Positions 1-6,343 of a stretch of DNA of 43,689 bases are shown here, one piece after another (position 1 is the stretch's first letter; every line of letters begins with the position of its first letter). Made by a program: the position numbers and the translations under genes. This DNA is from Clostridia bacterium. Its GTDB lineage: Bacteria > Bacillota > Clostridia > Monoglobales > Firm-18. The stretch is taken from NCBI GenBank assembly GCA_045576675.1, contig JAZNGX010000072.1, positions 1 through 43,689 of the forward strand, read 5' to 3'. The notes under the pieces were generated by a model that worked only from the letters and a program-made list of their open reading frames with translations, was not told the origin of the DNA and did not search any database.

Positions 1-26
1 CCAAGTGTTCTTAAGGACACTTGGGC

Positions 27-200
27 AGTTTTATTCGCCTTACGGCGAGTGCTATTGCTACGCAGTGATATTTGAACTTCGTTCAAGTGATATTGCCTTC
101 GGCAGTTTATGGCGAATTAAATATCACTGAAATCGTAAGATTTCAATACCACTTCCCCAAAGGGAAATATCACTCTGTGCGAAAAGCGCAGAATATCACT
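27..200. repeat. Composite palindromic element (REP/REPIN-like): 4 direct 9-mers plus 4 inverted 9-mers separated by mini-hairpins
   Basis: AGTTTTATT 27-35, AGTGCTATT 48-56, AGTGATATT 64-72 and 86-94; reverse-complement copies AATATCACT 120-128, AATACCACT 145-153, AATATCACT 166-174 and 192-200; short hairpins lie between them. Confidence 0.75.
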
Positions 201-211
201 ATATAAAAAGT

Positions 212-250
212 ACTACCCGAAAAATCTCTTCTTCGGGTAGTTTTTTGTTT
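212..250 (+). terminator. Intrinsic terminator-like hairpin
   Basis: ACTACCCGAA-N10-TTCGGGTAGT followed by a T-tract; an A-run precedes it, so it may act on both strands. Confidence 0.6.
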
Positions 251-423
251 TATACTGTTACAAGCAGGGAATTTGTGTGCCAAATTCCGTTTTTATTAAA
301 GGTAACTGTCCTTAGGGAACCTGTTCCTTGTCTTCGTCTTATGTTAAATACACTCTCATCACGGAGGAGGGCAGTATGGGGGCAGCAATTCCAAATATAT
401 TTAAGGTATGTAAAAAACTGAGC

Positions 424-459
424 AAAAAAATAAAGCGTACTGCTTTTGCAGTACGCTTT
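424..459 (-). terminator. Intrinsic terminator of the secreted protein/peptide unit
   Basis: Perfect 12-bp stem AAAGCGTACTGC-TTTT-GCAGTACGCTTT; T7 run follows on the - strand, just after the peptide stop codon. Confidence 0.85.
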
Positions 460-472
460 GATATTTGTTATA

Positions 473-598
473 TTATGAATTGTTGTTCATTACCCAGTAT
501 GTGATTGTATCACCGTCTGTAGTATAAGTAGGAGCAGCAACGCTGTCTTTTACTTTGATATCAACAACTTCAACAGTTGGCTTTTTGTATTCTTTCAT
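473..598 (-). CDS. 41-aa peptide MKEYKKPTVEVVDIKVKDSVAAPTYTTDGDTITYWVMNNNS with a YxxP leader-like N-terminus
   Basis: Translated by hand (below ORF-track cutoff); SD AAGGAG upstream of the ATG; starts 27 nt after the upstream stop; terminator directly follows. Confidence 0.8.
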   Translation of the reverse strand: MKEYKKPTVEVVDIKVKDSVAAPTYTTDGDTITYWVMNNNS

Positions 599-625
599 TT
601 TATTCACTCCTTAACTTAATATTGA

Positions 626-1687
626 TTATTTAGAAATTATTGTACCGTATTTGTAAATACCTTTAGCTTTTACATATGTACGAGCTTTATAACCTGTCAT
701 TTCACCTTTAGCATCGATTACGTTGATACCCCAAGCGCCTTCGCTGTTTGAAGCGTGAGCCGTTAATACGTAAACACCATCAACATCTGCTACGAAGCTT
801 TCATCAGCGATATTTGCTGTTGTGAACAAGATACCAAATTCAACACCTTTAGCTTCAGCTTCAGGAGCTATTGTAGAGAACACTGAAACTTGCTTTGAAC
901 CTTCTTTAACACCCTTTGCTTCCAATTCAGCTGCAAGATCTGCGTTTTCAGGCTTTGTGTATGTTACAGGAGCTTCAAGATCTTCAGCTTTTAGGTCTTT
1001 AGTGATAACTGTTTCGTATGCGATTTCGTCTTCGCTATCTGTACCCCAGTTTGTATCAAAATCAAAGCTGTCTTCAGGAACTACAACCTTTGCAAAAGCA
1101 AGTGTTGAGTTAGCTGCGAATGCAAGTTCGAATGTTGCAACATTCTTTTCAACTGCTGCGTCGCTGTTTAATGTGTATGTATACTTTTCAGAACCTGTTA
1201 CATTAAATGAAACATTAGCATTAGGAGCAACGTAGATAACATCTGATGCATCAACTGTTACGCCAGCAGCTGTAACTGTAAGACCTTCTTCTACAGTAAC
1301 GTTAACTGTGTAATAACCTGCAACTTTTGTAGTAGCTGAATCTGTTTCACCAAAGTTAACTGCTTCACCGTCTGTACCAACGATAGCTGTTGCAGTTGAA
1401 ACATTAGCCATTTTTTCAGCAGCTACTGAATATGAGAAACTGAAAGCGCCGTTATCATCGGCTGTTGTCTGATCTACATAAAGAATAGTGTCTTTTGTAG
1501 GTTCTGCGTCTTTGTAAATAATGTGTGTTACTTCTTTACCTGCATCAGCTGTACCTGATGTAACAAGGCTTGCTTTACCTGTGCTGATGTCGTAAGTAAC
1601 TGTTGTGTTGTAAGAATTTGCAAATGCGGTTAAGGACATTGAACCTAGCATCATAACCGCTAACATGATGCATAATACTTTTTTCAT
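626..1687 (-). CDS. Secreted acidic Ala/Thr/Val-rich protein, probable cell-surface protein of unknown function
   Basis: Sec signal peptide MKKVLCIMLAVMMLGSMSLTAFA; SD GGGGAGAG before ATG 1687 (preferred over 1744); beta-strand-like composition; no SLH or LPxTG motif recognised. Confidence 0.8.
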   Translation of the reverse strand: MKKVLCIMLAVMMLGSMSLTAFANSYNTTVTYDISTGKASLVTSGTADAGKEVTHIIYKDAEPTKDTILYVDQTTADDNGAFSFSYSVAAEKMANVSTATAIVGTDGEAVNFGETDSATTKVAGYYTVNVTVEEGLTVTAAGVTVDASDVIYVAPNANVSFNVTGSEKYTYTLNSDAAVEKNVATFELAFAANSTLAFAKVVVPEDSFDFDTNWGTDSEDEIAYETVITKDLKAEDLEAPVTYTKPENADLAAELEAKGVKEGSKQVSVFSTIAPEAEAKGVEFGILFTTANIADESFVADVDGVYVLTAHASNSEGAWGINVIDAKGEMTGYKARTYVKAKGIYKYGTIISK

Positions 1688-1769
1688 AAAATACTCTCCC
1701 CCAATTTTTTTTGACTTTTTTGTTCCGGAGCCTCCCCGAAACATTCTCTTTCTATTTTTACATACATAT

Positions 1770-1798
1770 ATGATACATAATTTTCAAGAATTTGTCAA
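1770..1798 (-). promoter_or_regulatory. sigmaA-type promoter for the secreted protein gene
   Basis: TTGACA-N17-TATCAT on the - strand. Confidence 0.65.
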
Positions 1799-2016
1799 GA
1801 GAATTATTTATTTTCAATAAACAGTAATATACAATTATTTCTCTTTCTTTTAGTTAAAATGCACAAAGATTTTTTTACGTTAAAAAATACCATAAAAAAC
1901 GTTGCTTTTTCGGGGTTATATAACGTGCCGGGACGGTGATTTGCAGCTGTTTTATATAGTGCTTGATTATTAATGTAACAAATTTTTAAAAATATTAAAT
2001 TTTTTTTACAAAAGTA

Positions 2017-2045
2017 TTGATTTTTTCGAAAAAATACATTATAAT
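2017..2045 (+). promoter_or_regulatory. sigmaA-type promoter of the dcw operon
   Basis: TTGATT-N17-TATAAT. Confidence 0.65.
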
Positions 2046-2053
2046 AAAAATCA

Positions 2054-2080
2054 AGTGGTGGAATTGTGGTTTTTTGTGGT
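2054..2080 (+). promoter_or_regulatory. MraZ operator repeats
   Basis: GTGG repeats at 2055, 2066 and 2076 (about one helical turn apart) just downstream of the promoter, as known for mraZ autoregulation. Confidence 0.75.
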
Positions 2081-2117
2081 TTTTATTCCCAAAAATGAGA
2101 TGGTGGAGGTGAACGCA

Positions 2118-2543
2118 GTGCTTACAGGTGAATATCAACATAATATAGACGCAAAAGGCAGAATGATAGTGCCTGTTAAACTGCGTGAAGAGCTGGGCGA
2201 TACGTTTGTTATTACAAAGGGGCTGGACGGCTGCTTGTTTGCTTTGCCTATGCCTGAATGGGAAAAGCTTGATAATGAATTGCGTGACAAACCAATTTCC
2301 ACAAGCCGAAAAATTAAACGATTCTTTTATGCGAGCAAAACAGATTGCGAAATTGATGGTAACGGAAGAATACTTATTCCGCAGCCGTTAAGAGAATTTG
2401 CACAGATAGAAAAAGAAGTTGTAGTTGTTGGTGTTTCAACACGAGTTGAAATATGGAGCAAGGAAAACTGGGATAAAGAAAATGCAATGTTTGTTGATAA
2501 TTCTGACGAGGTTGCATTGCAGATGGAAGAGCTGGGAATATGA
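2118..2543 (+). CDS. mraZ: Transcriptional regulator MraZ
   Basis: GEYQHNIDAKGR and DGNGRILIP repeats; GTG at 2118 follows SD GGAGGT. Confidence 0.97.
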   Translation: MLTGEYQHNIDAKGRMIVPVKLREELGDTFVITKGLDGCLFALPMPEWEKLDNELRDKPISTSRKIKRFFYASKTDCEIDGNGRILIPQPLREFAQIEKEVVVVGVSTRVEIWSKENWDKENAMFVDNSDEVALQMEELGI

Positions 2544-3460
2544 CGGAGTTTAAGTTTCATCACATACCTGTTATGCTTAACGAATGCATCGATGGTTTGG
2601 ATATTAAAAAAGACGGAATTTATGTTGACGGAACGCTTGGCGGATGCGGTCATTCAAAGCATATAGTGAAAAACGGCGGTAAGGTTATCGGAATAGACCG
2701 TGATATGACAGCGATAAAAAATGCGGCAAACATATTGCCTGAAGCTATAACTGTTCACGATAATTACAGCAACATAAAAAATATTCTTAACAATTTAAAT
2801 ATAGATAGTATTGACGGAGCATTGCTTGATTTGGGCGTGTCATCATATCAGCTAGACACTCCTGAAAGAGGCTTTAGTTATCGTTATGATGCACCGCTTG
2901 ATATGCGTATGGATACTTCAAAAGGTGTTACTGCCTATGATGTAGTTAATGAATATTCAAAGGAAGAGCTTGAAAGTATATTTTTCAGATATGGTGAGGA
3001 ACAATATTCACGTTCTATTGCGGCAAGAATTGATGAACGCCGCAGGTTTTCGCCAATTAAAACTACTCTTGAGCTTGCAGATATTATAAAGTATGCTATT
3101 CCGCCAAAAGCAAGGCGAGATAAGCATCCTGCAAAAAAGGTGTTTCAGGCAATAAGAATTGAAGTTAATGGTGAGCTTGAGGTGCTTGGACAGACTGTTG
3201 AGGATTTTTGTGAGGTGTTAAAGCCAGGAGGCAGACTTGCAATAATAACCTTTCATTCTTTAGAAGACAGAGCAATAAAAAACACATTCAATAAGCTTGC
3301 AAAGGGCTGTGTTTGTCCGCCTGATTTTCCGATTTGCGTATGCGGCAACAAGCCGAAGGCGGAATTGCTTTCAAGAAAACCTGTATTACCTTCAAAAGAA
3401 GAACTTGAAATCAATCCGAGGTCAGCCAGTGCAAAGCTAAGGATATTAATTAAGAAATAA
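2540..3460 (+). CDS. rsmH: 16S rRNA m4C1402 methyltransferase
   Basis: HIPVML, DGTLGGCGHS, DLGVSSYQLD, FQAIRIEVN, NPRSASAKLR motifs. Confidence 0.97.
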   Translation: MTEFKFHHIPVMLNECIDGLDIKKDGIYVDGTLGGCGHSKHIVKNGGKVIGIDRDMTAIKNAANILPEAITVHDNYSNIKNILNNLNIDSIDGALLDLGVSSYQLDTPERGFSYRYDAPLDMRMDTSKGVTAYDVVNEYSKEELESIFFRYGEEQYSRSIAARIDERRRFSPIKTTLELADIIKYAIPPKARRDKHPAKKVFQAIRIEVNGELEVLGQTVEDFCEVLKPGGRLAIITFHSLEDRAIKNTFNKLAKGCVCPPDFPICVCGNKPKAELLSRKPVLPSKEELEINPRSASAKLRILIKK

Positions 3461-3483
3461 AAATTTTTACGGAGGAAAAGCGT

Positions 3484-3954
3484 ATGTATTATCCTACACG
3501 GGGTACAAGTGCATATAAGCCTGAGATCGTTGTTCCGCAACGTGAGTTAAAAAAAGCGGTTAACAATCAAAAATTACGCAAAAAGGCAAAGTCACAAAGA
3601 TTTTATGCAATGGTTGCTATTGCAACAATGTTTTTGCTTGTGTTTGCTTATCTTTCAAGAAGTGTACATATATATGGTCAGCGTGATGAAATTGCTCAGA
3701 AAACCGAACAGCTTGAAAACCTTAGAATGGCAAACGACCAGTTGAACGTGGAAATCAAGAGCTTGACTGACAGTTCAAGAATAGAGCAATACGCTTCTGA
3801 ACACCTTAATCTTAAAAAAATGGACTCTAATCAGATTGTATATCTTGACCAGACAACAGAAGACAATATGCAAAGGATAACAAAAAACAACGGCAACGGT
3901 ATTTTTAAAGGAATTTTCGGATTATTCGCAGGAGTTGTGGAATATTTGCGATAA
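3484..3954 (+). CDS. ftsL: Cell division protein FtsL-like
   Basis: Single TM segment plus coiled coil, RIEQYA..L motif, position after rsmH. Confidence 0.75.
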   Translation: MYYPTRGTSAYKPEIVVPQRELKKAVNNQKLRKKAKSQRFYAMVAIATMFLLVFAYLSRSVHIYGQRDEIAQKTEQLENLRMANDQLNVEIKSLTDSSRIEQYASEHLNLKKMDSNQIVYLDQTTEDNMQRITKNNGNGIFKGIFGLFAGVVEYLR

Positions 3955-4105
3955 TTGAAAAATAAATATGAATTATGTAATATATTGTAAATATGGTATA
4001 AGGGGGAATATCCTCTTATACTATTTTCGCTTTATAATATAGTATAAAATTTGTCGAAAGGGGAAGGGCTAAAGCTAATTCGGCTTTAAAACCTGTGGAG
4101 CTGCT

Positions 4106-6343
4106 ATGGCTGAAAATCACAAAAACAGCAAAAGAAAATCTATGACAAAGCTCAGTAAAAAGCGTGCGGTTATGGTAGGCTGGATTTTTATTGCGCTTTT
4201 GTTTGCCCTTGTTATAAGACTTGGTCATTTGCAGATTGTTCGTGGTGAGGAGCTGCGTAAGGCTGCTGCAGAACAGCAGGCAGGCGACCGTATGATAAGG
4301 TCAAAACGTGGTGATATACTTGACAGAAATGGTACACAGCTTGCGGTTTCGGCATCTGTTGAAACGATATCCGCTTCGCCTAAAATTGTTAAATCAAACA
4401 AAGATAACATATCGGTTGAAGAAGTGGCAAGTGGCTTAAGCCAGATACTTGAGCTTGATTATGATAGAGTTTATAAGCATCTTACTGCCAACACAGAATA
4501 TGAAAATCTAAAATCCAAGGTAGATAAAGAAACAGCCGATAAAGTACGAAGGTTTATAAATACCAACGACGTAATCGGAATTCAGATAGATCAGGATACA
4601 AAACGTTTTTATCCGTACGGAAATTTTGCCTCACACATAATTGGTACAACAGGCACTGATAATCAGGGCTTAAGCGGAATTGAAATGATGTACGACAAAT
4701 ATCTCAAAGGCTCACCGGGGCGTGTTATAACAGCGAAAACAGGCGGTGGTAAGGATATGCCGTTTGAGTATGAGAGAATGATTGACCCTACAGATGGCCT
4801 TAATGTTGTGCTTACAATAGACGAGTCTATTCAGCGTTTTGCGGAGAAACACCTTGAAACCGCAGTGCTTGAAAACAAGCTTGGTAACGGTGCTGCCTGC
4901 ATAGTTATGGAGGTAAAAACGGGCAATATACTGGCGATGACAACAAAGCCTGATTTTGACTTGAACAAGGCGTTTGAAATACAGGAGCCTGAAACTGCCG
5001 AAAAGCTAAAAGAGCTTGAAGGTGACGAATGGCTTGAGCTTTACAATCAATCATTGCAAAAACAGTGGCGAAATAAAGCTGTATCAGATACATACGAGCC
5101 GGGTTCTACTTTCAAAATTTTCACAATGGCAATGGCGTTGGAAGAAAAAACAAACAATCTTAATGATATGTTTTATTGCGGTGGCTCAAAGAGAGTTGGT
5201 GACAGAACAATAAGATGCTGGAAGGCGGGCGGTCACGGACAGCAAACATTTGTGCAGGCGGCTCAGAATTCCTGTAATCCGGCGTTTATTGACATTGGTG
5301 CAAATATCGGTGCAGAAAAGTTTTATAATTATTTTCAGGGCTTTGGCTTTATGAGAATGACTGGTATTGACCTTGCCGGAGAGGCCTTGGGACTGTTTCA
5401 TCAGCGTTCTAATTTCCACGAAATTCAGCTTGCAACCTCATCTTTCGGTCAGACCTTTAACGTAACACCATTGCAGATGATAACTGCGGTAAGTGCGGTT
5501 GCAAACGGCGGAAAGCTTATGCAGCCCAAGGTTGTAAAACAGCTTACAGACAGTGATGGAAACGTGGTTACAAATTACGAGGATGTTGTGGTAAGACAGA
5601 TTATATCGGAGGAAACCTGTAAAACACTTTGCGACATATTGGAATCAGTTGTTTCTGAAGGTGGTGGTTCCGGTACATACATAAAAGGCTATCGTGTTGC
5701 AGGAAAAACAGGTACTGCCGAAAAAGTGCCGAGAGGAACAGGAAAATACGTATCGTCCTTTATAGGCTTTGCACCGGCAGATGACCCACAGATTGCAGTT
5801 CTGGTTATGCTTGATGAACCTAACGGTCACGCATATTACGGTGGCGTAATTGCTACTCCGGTTGCAAGAAACATCTTTGAAGATACCCTTAATTATTTAA
5901 ATGTTGAGGCGGCATACACGCCTGAAGAATTGCTTACCTTGGAATCAACAGTACCGAATGTTACCGGCAAAACTGTTGAGGATGCAAAAAGAGCAATTGA
6001 AGCAAGTGGTTTAAAATGTAAAATAGACGGCGATGGAGAAACTGTTCTTAATCAAATTCCAAAAGGAGGAATTAAAGTTAATCAATCGTCAACAATAATG
6101 TTGTACACTACTGAAAATCAGGAGCCTGCACTTACTACAGTGCCAAACGTGCTTAACTGTTCGGCAACAAAAGCGTCAGAACTGATTTCTCAGGCAAATC
6201 TTAATATAAACATTGTTGGTGCGGGAGCAAATCCAAGTCAGAACAGTGTTGTGTCTTATAAGCAGGACCCTGCCGCAGGCACACAGGTTGAAATAGGCAG
6301 GATAGTAACGGTAGAATTTAAAAATTTGGAAGCAGGGGAGTGA
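4106..6343 (+). CDS. Class B penicillin-binding protein (SpoVD/FtsI type) with two PASTA domains
   Basis: RGDILDRNG, YEPGSTFK (SxxK), SCN, KTGT motifs; two C-terminal VPNV PASTA starts. Confidence 0.93.
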   Translation: MAENHKNSKRKSMTKLSKKRAVMVGWIFIALLFALVIRLGHLQIVRGEELRKAAAEQQAGDRMIRSKRGDILDRNGTQLAVSASVETISASPKIVKSNKDNISVEEVASGLSQILELDYDRVYKHLTANTEYENLKSKVDKETADKVRRFINTNDVIGIQIDQDTKRFYPYGNFASHIIGTTGTDNQGLSGIEMMYDKYLKGSPGRVITAKTGGGKDMPFEYERMIDPTDGLNVVLTIDESIQRFAEKHLETAVLENKLGNGAACIVMEVKTGNILAMTTKPDFDLNKAFEIQEPETAEKLKELEGDEWLELYNQSLQKQWRNKAVSDTYEPGSTFKIFTMAMALEEKTNNLNDMFYCGGSKRVGDRTIRCWKAGGHGQQTFVQAAQNSCNPAFIDIGANIGAEKFYNYFQGFGFMRMTGIDLAGEALGLFHQRSNFHEIQLATSSFGQTFNVTPLQMITAVSAVANGGKLMQPKVVKQLTDSDGNVVTNYEDVVVRQIISEETCKTLCDILESVVSEGGGSGTYIKGYRVAGKTGTAEKVPRGTGKYVSSFIGFAPADDPQIAVLVMLDEPNGHAYYGGVIATPVARNIFEDTLNYLNVEAAYTPEELLTLESTVPNVTGKTVEDAKRAIEASGLKCKIDGDGETVLNQIPKGGIKVNQSSTIMLYTTENQEPALTTVPNVLNCSATKASELISQANLNINIVGAGANPSQNSVVSYKQDPAAGTQVEIGRIVTVEFKNLEAGE

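Follow-up and report, generated by a model that had tools for sequence, protein, structure and literature searches.

In the trp leader of Bacillus, the ring oligomer TRAP binds repeated short leader words, one per subunit, and chooses between RNA pairings. Some intervening sequences of 23S rRNA are small mobile insertions in a stable-RNA locus that combine a structured RNA with a PF05635 gene. We know of no role for the stand-alone Avd-like/TIGR02436 proteins outside diversity-generating retroelements (DGRs). The Avd protein of DGRs is a pentamer that binds an 11-bp stem-loop capped by UNCG, with flipped bases between protomers, and stem-loops of this type are predicted in 207 of 278 DGRs (bioRxiv 10.1101/2023.10.23.563531). 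Gut-1, in the account that Weinberg et al. (2010; PMC2864571) give of it, is a likely non-coding RNA, not cis-regulatory and present only in human gut data. It has been an orphan motif since 2010: besides that paper, the literature searched yielded only a structure-prediction benchmark and no paper on its function. Here, we describe a copy of a Gut-1-containing element whose relatives are tied to Avd-like genes. It occupies positions 1–325 of a stretch of 43,689 nt (hereafter the window), which is the start of contig C72 (JAZNGX010000072.1) in the assembly of a Clostridia bacterium (GCA_045576675.1; 2.35 Mb, 185 contigs), so that the element lies at a contig end.

The element is referred to below as a ladder, as it consists of short words that alternate with hairpins and are followed by their complements (anti-words), again alternating with hairpins. 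The source genome (93.9% complete) is designated G000 and its contigs C; other G numbers are relatives and L numbers are the stretches examined. The reading that we prefer, with a probability of roughly one half, is that the ladder serves mobile Avd-like cassettes as a leader RNA to which protein binds, and that the window holds an orphan copy between terminators. The physical link between ladder and Avd-like gene joins two orphans and makes both testable, and the Avd-like/TIGR02436 family is widespread, with at least 594 relatives matched among 185,579 species genomes. Ladders also explain common contig breaks and odd hairpin arrays behind tRNA genes in genomes of gut and rumen Clostridia. 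The result for the window by itself is modest, namely a known motif in a copy that lacks a gene.

A two-armed element built on Gut-1

The Rfam model of Gut-1 (RF01706) matches positions 26–98 of the window on the + strand (cmscan, 51.8 bits, E = 7.9e-9; gathering score 50). The right arm, at 116–201 on the − strand, scores 40.8 bits, below the gathering score (E = 4.9e-6). As both arms match the same family on opposite strands, the ladder consists of two inverted Gut-1 arms. The alignment to the model displays three hairpins with conserved GUGAAAU-like single-stranded linkers, and the hairpins show compensatory changes. The left arm belongs to this catalogued family, which has no assigned function. 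A preliminary description of the window, made from its letters alone, could not assign the ladder to a named family and conceded that a match to an existing one would remove its novelty; the motif itself is indeed not new. New here are the larger two-armed architecture and the tight tie to an orphan protein family, neither of which was found in the literature searched, which also contained no paper linking Gut-1 to PF05635.

Words resembling AGTGATATT stand on the + strand at 48 (one mismatch), 64 and 86 (both exact), and the complement of AGTGATATT stands at 120, 166 and 192 (exact) and at 145 (one mismatch). The word at 27, AGTTTTATT, has two mismatches to AGTGATATT, and a degenerate fifth word, AGTTTATGG, is found at 104. 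The preliminary list lacked this fifth word; the eight 9-mers that it gave are confirmed, and reading of the sequence and folding agree with its account of all seven spacer hairpins (Table 1). Matches to the word with at most one mismatch number 35 in the window versus 15.5 expected, a value reached by 0 of 100 shuffles, and seven of them fall within 48–200 (153 nt). Folded as RNA, positions 1–250 give z = −10.4 on the + strand and −8.7 on the − strand, and a scanner independent of the word detects 11 loci in G000 versus 1, 4, 0 and 0 in four block shuffles. The ladder pattern is far beyond chance.

G000 contains 16 ladders (BLAST, Rfam model and scanner) belonging to three word classes. The ladder is an intergenic repeat present in several copies, and its two halves face in opposite directions, as had been proposed. 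In each two-armed copy, the word specific to it recurs in the right arm as an exact complement, and five left words were counted in every word class checked for it. The ladders with the words TCGATAT and GCTAAAT match no Rfam family at E < 0.1.

Avd-like genes downstream of the ladders

The ladder on C163, which belongs to the subfamily of the window copy, is followed by a promoter (TTGAAA-17-TATAAT) and by a gene encoding a protein of 116 aa. This protein matches PF05635 (4.3e-28), TIGR02436 'four helix bundle protein' (1.1e-31) and PDB 2RLD, a structure with five chains (7.7e-28); with the DGR Avd model it gives only 19.1 bits (E = 0.0013) for a cut-off of 80. A lenient Pfam scan and the literature looked at gave no relation of PF05635 to HEPN.

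PF05635 is present in 21 of the 24 Gut-1 genomes among 61 relatives and in 7 of the 37 others, in 28/31 Gut-1 genomes versus 24/119 others of a sample drawn evenly across the class, and in 10/10 versus 7/32 among the relatives with a completeness of ≥90% and a contamination of ≤5%, all of them counts that overstate the link because related genomes are not independent. Therefore, physical linkage weighs more. A ladder lies immediately upstream in 11 of 19 assessable PF05635 loci, and the other eight carry hairpin-less tandem heptads directly before the start codon; Tandem Repeats Finder detects a period of 7 in six of these eight. The heptads (approximately ARTGNNN, 2.7–5.1 copies) precede a second Avd-like subfamily (L072, L073, L076, L078, L081, L086), and no comparable period-7 array exists in the 1.3 kb further upstream of those genes. 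The two types of array, ladder and heptad, match two protein subfamilies.

Of the at least 594 relatives of the protein found in the 185,579 species genomes, the best 80 were analysed and 73 had enough upstream sequence. A strict parse recognizes a ladder upstream of 40 of these 73 genes. Of the 33 that it rejects, inspection by eye reveals a ladder, either complete or with a single arm, in 31. An objective test that demands at least three identical 6-mers, each separated by a hairpin, is passed by 47 of the 73 upstream regions versus 2 of 131 control stretches.

Two further observations concern these genes. In L039 (G018:C70, contig end), the same 5' hairpin and ladder restart right after the stop codon of the Avd-like gene, which could mean that cassettes stand in tandem, that the element is circular or that the assembly is at fault. 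In a paper on CRISPR discovery, '23S rRNA IVP' is named among the protein families associated with CRISPR arrays (PMC10910872); repeat arrays before PF05635 genes might cause this association.

Fold and covariation

Hairpin statistics were drawn from 43 parsed ladders of G000 and its relatives. Their 177 distinct hairpins comprise 873 pairs, of which 856 are Watson-Crick, 4 G.T, 2 A.C and 11 other. Hairpin sequences vary from copy to copy and also inside a single copy, against a background of conserved linkers; the hairpins are kept as structures and not as sequences, as a check for covariation suggested earlier has borne out. The loop asymmetry first noticed in the window is general across the 43 ladders, with TTC, TGAC and TGC in the left arm and GAA, AAA and GTAA in the right arm.

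An alignment of nine ladders of the GTGATAT class (A1) contains compensatory pairs in H0 (5 of 10), H1 (2), H3 (2), h1 (2), h2 (2) and h3 (4). Within its local hairpins, 89% of the cells pair, versus 31–46% when the partners are slid, and its covariation score was reached by 0 of 500 shuffles. Beyond the local hairpins, the preliminary description had drawn three nested four-way junctions made by pairing of words with anti-words. The inner rungs M4–M'1 and M3–M'2 do pair, with one compensatory pair each (Table 1). This picture is nevertheless only partly right, because the outer rung M1–M'4 includes two positions that (almost) never pair and because M1 pairs with the centre. In a rung-register test on deviating words, 9 of 83 informative positions were compensated in the nested register versus 1/59, 2/73, 1/58 and 3/39 in shifted registers (7/229 summed), which backs the nested ladder weakly; related copies are interdependent.

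The pairing of M1 with the centre defines a helix, P1, between 29–39 (end of M1 and 5' arm of H1) and 111–121, with 96.6% of the cells paired and two covarying pairs in A1. The best complement of the centre, a perfect run of 9–13 nt, falls at the place of P1 in about 33 of the 43 ladders, with at least 11 sequence variants; its mean length over the 43 ladders is 10.1 nt versus 6.1 nt for shuffled centres. P1 competes with H1 and gives the element its polarity. In A1, the G.T pairs of both H0 and h3 lie on the + strand, a weak hint that the element folds as one unit on a single strand, and not arm by arm on opposite strands. Across the 43 ladders, G.T and A.C pairs are too few (4 and 2 of 873) for their asymmetry to decide the folding strand.

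The ladder as a probable leader of Avd-like genes

In 24 of the 40 parsed loci, at most 26 nt separate the last word from the start codon and this interval includes the ribosome-binding site (RBS), so the ladder must be 5' leader RNA in those loci. The order in L135, L136 and L170 is promoter, tRNA, hairpin, ladder, RBS and gene, the only promoter being that of the upstream tRNA. A −10 box stands directly before the first hairpin of the ladder in L141, and L088, L082 and L047 also have one before the ladder (by reading of the sequences). In these loci, the mRNA must carry the ladder as its 5' leader. Heptad arrays likewise lie in leaders (L076, L073). The Avd protein of DGRs, the only studied homologue of the Avd-like proteins, binds RNA.

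Combining the leader position with the fold, the following scheme can be proposed. The complete element would be the 5' leader RNA of an Avd-like (PF05635/TIGR02436) four-helix-bundle gene. Its core (27–200 in the window) comprises five words of 7–9 nt between small perfect hairpins, a centre pairing to the first word (P1) and four anti-words between other hairpins. A ring of the protein would bind the leader of its own gene at words and hairpins, each subunit taking one word, as TRAP does on the trp leader or DGR Avd on its stem-loop. The anti-word arm would compete by pairing with the words and the P1/H1 alternative would offer a competing fold, so that the whole may act as an autoregulatory switch. 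Units, with or without the gene, would move as modules to sites behind tRNA-CCA ends and terminators and would also cross between bacterial families and phage-like contigs, the gene often being lost. The copy of the window (1–325) has lost its gene or never had one; it is most likely a relic, and could at most act as decoy RNA towards the only Avd-like protein that G000 encodes, on C163. The presumed number of subunits is based on the five left words, the five chains of 2RLD and the pentamer described for DGR Avd (bioRxiv 10.1101/2023.10.23.563531). The array of protein-binding sites put forward in the preliminary description comes close to this scheme, with RNA as the presumed carrier of the sites and a binding that we infer.

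A wider proposal is tentative, and we think it less probable than not. Gut-1 ladders and heptads would be the cognate RNA ligands of the stand-alone Avd-like/TIGR02436 proteins, a large orphan family, a pentamer reading the five leader words and the anti-word arm being the switch. The pair would form the core of a minimal mobile cassette behind tRNA genes, with dozens of orphan ladders per genome, comparable to the repetitive extragenic palindromes (REPs) and their RAYTs without a known catalytic protein.

Several observations weigh against the ladder being a leader RNA of Avd-like cassettes. In 16 of the 40 parsed loci and in the subfamily of the window (C163, L079, L039), the promoter lies between ladder and gene and its −35 box abuts the last anti-word, an arrangement at least as compatible with a DNA operator as with a leader. 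The near lack of G.U in the stems (4 of 873 pairs) and the favoured GAA/TTC triloops are more typical of DNA hairpins, and the RNA nature of the ladder is deduced from the geometry of the genes, a search for RNA runs that contain window positions 1–4000 having found none. No gene follows the copy in the window, nothing resembling a promoter precedes it, and terminator-like hairpins lie on either side. Only one of the 16 ladders of G000 adjoins an Avd-like gene, and elsewhere 3 of 29 Gut-1 loci precede one. PF05635 is missing from three Gut-1 genomes in each of the two larger samples, in which 7 and 24 carriers of the gene lack a Gut-1 match; some of these gene-only genomes carry heptads or ladders with other words (the latter in at least G006 and G032). 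Finally, G000 has one Avd-like gene and three word classes, so that a correspondence of one protein per word class fails in this genome.

Insertion sites and the case for mobile DNA

Among the relatives, 17 of 29 Gut-1 loci start right after a tRNA-like ...CCA end and an A-tract, hairpin and T-tract (by reading). ARAGORN finds a tRNA directly before the ladder in 7 of 12 re-fetched stretches, with many tRNA identities, and the C125 ladder of G000 lies 3' of two tRNA-Arg genes. Most copies begin right after the T-tract of a terminator. In L092, four units follow one tRNA-Arg, each composed of an A-tract hairpin T-tract, a ladder and a box ending in CCA, and the Avd-like gene comes after the last. 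Tandem ladder units are also present on C114 and C15; many units are gene-less, and certain genes are preceded by a promoter of their own. The conserved box, (T)GCATCTAWWYYRTWC...CCA, followed by an A-tract terminator, was observed after many ladders (L092 1390–1425, C114, C63, C125, L031, L035, L041, L045), and the two together reproduce the junction between tRNA-CCA and terminator. The box may bear some resemblance to the arms of Xer/dif sites.

Comparison of filled and empty sites, an approach already considered in the preliminary description, gave a clear result for G059 versus G051, which differ by one extra unit of ~245 nt placed exactly between CCA and A-tract, with a 14-nt junction repeat. 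For the subfamily of the window, no clean empty-site joint was found in four gut-metagenome contig sets, which contain many loose ends. Ladder units are acquired as separate modules, directly behind tRNA-CCA. The orthologous site of G044 (L112, G044:C56:73680-73890) is not empty: it contains an insert of ~150 nt after tRNA-Arg, at whose borders 29 nt of the 3' end of this tRNA are directly repeated. The insert thereby bears the classic mark of an integrase-type insertion, at the same tRNA as the ladder units of G059 and G051. A phage-like scaffold carries promoter, tRNA-Arg, hairpin, ladder and Avd-like gene in this order, and an Avd-like protein 87% identical (by-eye count on two sequences) occurs in another bacterial family; a plasmid collection gave no match.

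Within G000, the C181 copy shares 94% identity with window positions 1–300, and the homology stops at about 325. The 17-nt inverted repeat on its flanks resembles a bidirectional terminator cut in two, and no target-site duplication was seen. C175, whose end is made up of window positions 1–34, probably adjoins the window on the left. The assembly breaks at the repeats on C72, C63, C100 and C175. In four of four gut-metagenome contig sets, the ladder sequence is 10–100 times deeper than its flanks, as measured on the C181 copy. Small accessory genes (Phd-Doc, RelB-YafQ, DUF4304-like and a barstar homologue) lie beside ladders on C130/C46, C83 and C114.

From these data, the ladder might instead be a DNA-level mobile repeat of the type of miniature inverted-repeat transposable elements or attC sites: single-stranded DNA would fold the hairpins and P1, some recombinase would act on it, and the Avd-like gene would be its commonest cargo or an accessory to mobility. 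We consider this unlikely. The exact gain of the unit with its junction repeat, the tandem units that each finish in box...CCA, the C181 copy within its apparent split terminator, the contig breaks, the excess depth in all four contig sets, the copy in the phage-like scaffold and the presence of other cargo nearby (Phd-Doc, RelB-YafQ, barstar) all speak for it, as do the near-pure Watson-Crick stems with their GAA/TTC triloops. It leaves unexplained, however, the five identical words, the fixed polarity with the gene and the RBS within 14–26 nt of the last word; moreover, no target-site duplication was seen for the subfamily of the window, and no enzyme was found when the C138 integrase, a RAYT-like gene and a reverse transcriptase were looked at.

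The tyrosine integrase adjacent to the ladder on C138 was rejected as the cognate enzyme, as its presence does not follow the ladders: G059, G054 and G049 have 12, 8 and 7 Gut-1 matches but only Xer-level integrase matches, and G006 has five integrase copies and no Gut-1. An integron-type recombinase was rejected too, close homologues of the C138 integrase being found in genomes without Gut-1 and none in ladder-rich ones. A DGR was rejected as well: no reverse transcriptase was found (0 PF00078 matches in G000, which is 93.9% complete), and the score with the DGR Avd model lies below its cut-off.

Operators, small RNAs and REP-type repeats

The words could also be double-stranded DNA operators, bound by the Avd-like protein or another factor that regulates transcription, with the hairpins as mere spacers. 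The promoters of C163, L079, L039 and L114–L124 are in keeping with this idea, the last anti-word abutting the −35 box (CACT directly followed by TTGAAA-17-TATAAT), as are the succession of direct and inverted words and the overlap of the heptad arrays with the promoter in L086. The spacing of the words in the window is irregular (16–26 nt), so that they are not phased on the DNA helix. Furthermore, the spacers are selected as hairpins, as indicated by their compensatory changes, and P1 covaries, neither of which duplex DNA needs, and the ladder is inside a transcribed leader in 24 of 40 loci. The sole characterised homologue binds RNA (bioRxiv 10.1101/2023.10.23.563531). An operator function is improbable on this evidence.

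We attach no more credence to an independent trans-acting small RNA, which in the window would start at a promoter further upstream and end at the 207–247 terminator. That terminator lies 3' of the ladder as required, and the description of Gut-1 in PMC2864571 as a likely non-coding RNA, not cis-regulatory, agrees with such a product. No promoter-like site, however, was seen before the ladder in the window or in its probable left flank C175; most copies start right behind a terminator T-tract, and the Rfam motif represents just one part, the left arm, of a longer unit that is linked to the gene downstream of it.

The PF01797 (Y1_Tnp) matches of G000 lie on C35, on C75 and, as a weak fragment, on C63, and neither C35 nor C75 has a ladder. 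The C35 gene is an ordinary IS200-type tnpA. The C75 gene (C75:30234-31028) encodes a RAYT-like Y1 transposase of 265 aa and has its own inverted repeats on its flanks, unrelated to the ladders. A REP/REPIN-type repeat mobilised by a RAYT (HUH Y1), as first proposed for the window, or a passive terminator/insulator block, is hardly credible: multiple extragenic hairpin copies in two orientations, two Y1_Tnp genes and terminator-like flanks speak for it, but no RAYT of G000 is flanked by ladders, hairpin sequences vary and linkers are conserved (the reverse of REPs), and the internal hairpins lack T-tracts and thus are not terminators.

Other features of the window and of the source genome

The positions of the features and the pairing of the rungs are given in Table 1. 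The 5' hairpin H0 recurs in C181, C163, L039, L079 and L084. The 3' module is an inverted version of a module found 3' of the terminator of the Avd-like gene in C163 and L079. A bidirectional terminator (431–460) separates the ladder from the gene at 626–1744 (−), whose 3' end faces the ladder and which encodes a protein of 372 aa; the start of this protein resembles a signal peptide, and Pfam gave no match at E ≤ 0.01. From their translations, we take the genes at 2055–6343 (+) to be the start of a dcw cluster, presumably mraZ (2055–2543), rsmH (2540–3460), an ftsL-like gene (3484–3954) and a penicillin-binding-protein-like gene (4106–6343). Elsewhere in G000, in the TCGATAT ladder at C155:23879-24045, a 47-nt insert replaces one right-arm spacer and two left-arm units are absent.

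Table 1. Features of the window copy, pairing of words with anti-words in alignment A1, and word classes of the ladders in G000
Feature	Position or contigs	Strand	Description
5' hairpin H0	1–24	+	10 bp, one T.G on the + strand; T-rich M1 next; terminator-like on +; conserved first part of the ladder subfamily
Left-arm words M1 (27–35, degenerate), M2 (48–56), M3 (64–72), M4 (86–94)	27–103	+	Gut-1 motif proper
Left-arm hairpins H1 to H4	36–47, 57–63, 73–85, 95–103	+	alternate with the M words; H2 (57–63) only 2 bp
Centre: degenerate fifth word (104–112) and 3' strand of helix P1 (111–121)	104–121	+	inverted repeat; 111–121 pairs with 29–39
Right-arm anti-words M'1 (120–128), M'2 (145–153), M'3 (166–174), M'4 (192–200)	120–200	+	
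Right-arm hairpins h1 to h3	129–144, 154–165, 175–191	+	between anti-words; h3 with one T.G on the + strand
Intrinsic-terminator-like hairpin	207–247		A-tract before, T-tract after; replaces the promoter and Avd-like gene of relatives (C163, L079, L039 compared)
3' module	250–325		common only to the window and the C181 copy; holds a hairpin and T-run (268–288)
Rung M4–M'1			100% of cells paired; 1 covarying pair
Rung M3–M'2			92.6% of cells paired; 1 covarying pair (a change in C181 restores the pair that is A.C in the window)
Rung M2–M'3			89.6% of cells paired; 0 covarying pairs
Rung M1–M'4			80.6% of cells paired; 0 covarying pairs; two positions (almost) never pair
Word GTGATAT	C72, C181, C163, C114, C63, C15		6 copies, that on C15 a half copy
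Word TCGATAT	C100, C130, C138, C15, C31, C46, C83, C155		8 copies
Word GCTAAAT	C114, C125		2 copies

Comparison with known systems

The left arm of the window resembles Gut-1 in its small hairpins, UUC/UNCG-like loops and GUGAAAU-like linkers, Gut-1 having three or four such hairpins and occurring in gut bacteria. The Rfam model covers 77 positions and one arm, whereas the element described here spans ~175 nt with P1, an anti-word arm and a 5' hairpin. Its linker word varies among copies, with at least eight classes, and its copies go with Avd-like genes and with the 3' flanks of tRNAs; the description of the motif classes it as not cis-regulatory (PMC2864571).

Like the Avd stem-loop of DGRs, the ladder is a structured RNA, on the reading preferred here, beside which a four-helix-bundle protein of the Avd family is encoded; the protein of DGRs is pentameric and binds RNA, and its stems are of about 9–11 bp with UNCG or GNRA caps (bioRxiv 10.1101/2023.10.23.563531). 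The present systems have neither reverse transcriptase nor template or variable repeat, the C163 protein fits TIGR02436 (1.1e-31) and not the DGR Avd model (0.0013), and the presumed RNA is an array of many short hairpins and words, not one stem-loop.

With TRAP, the ladder would have nothing but the mechanism in common: the two proteins are not related, and the words, of 7–9 nt, lie between hairpins. Their binding would be analogous to that of the trp leader. Words located in the 5' leader of the gene, as for TRAP, were found in 24 of the 40 parsed Avd-linked loci, and neither in the window copy nor in the loci with a promoter after the ladder.

With REP/REPIN sequences and their RAYTs, the ladders share the many dispersed extragenic hairpin repeats and the one small associated gene flanked by the repeat. 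They differ in that the associated gene encodes a four-helix-bundle protein without known catalytic domain and not an HUH transposase, and in that the sequences of the hairpins are free and the linkers conserved. Lastly, compared with the intervening sequences of 23S rRNA, the ladder units are inserted behind tRNA genes and terminators and not in rRNA, and their structure precedes the gene instead of enclosing it.

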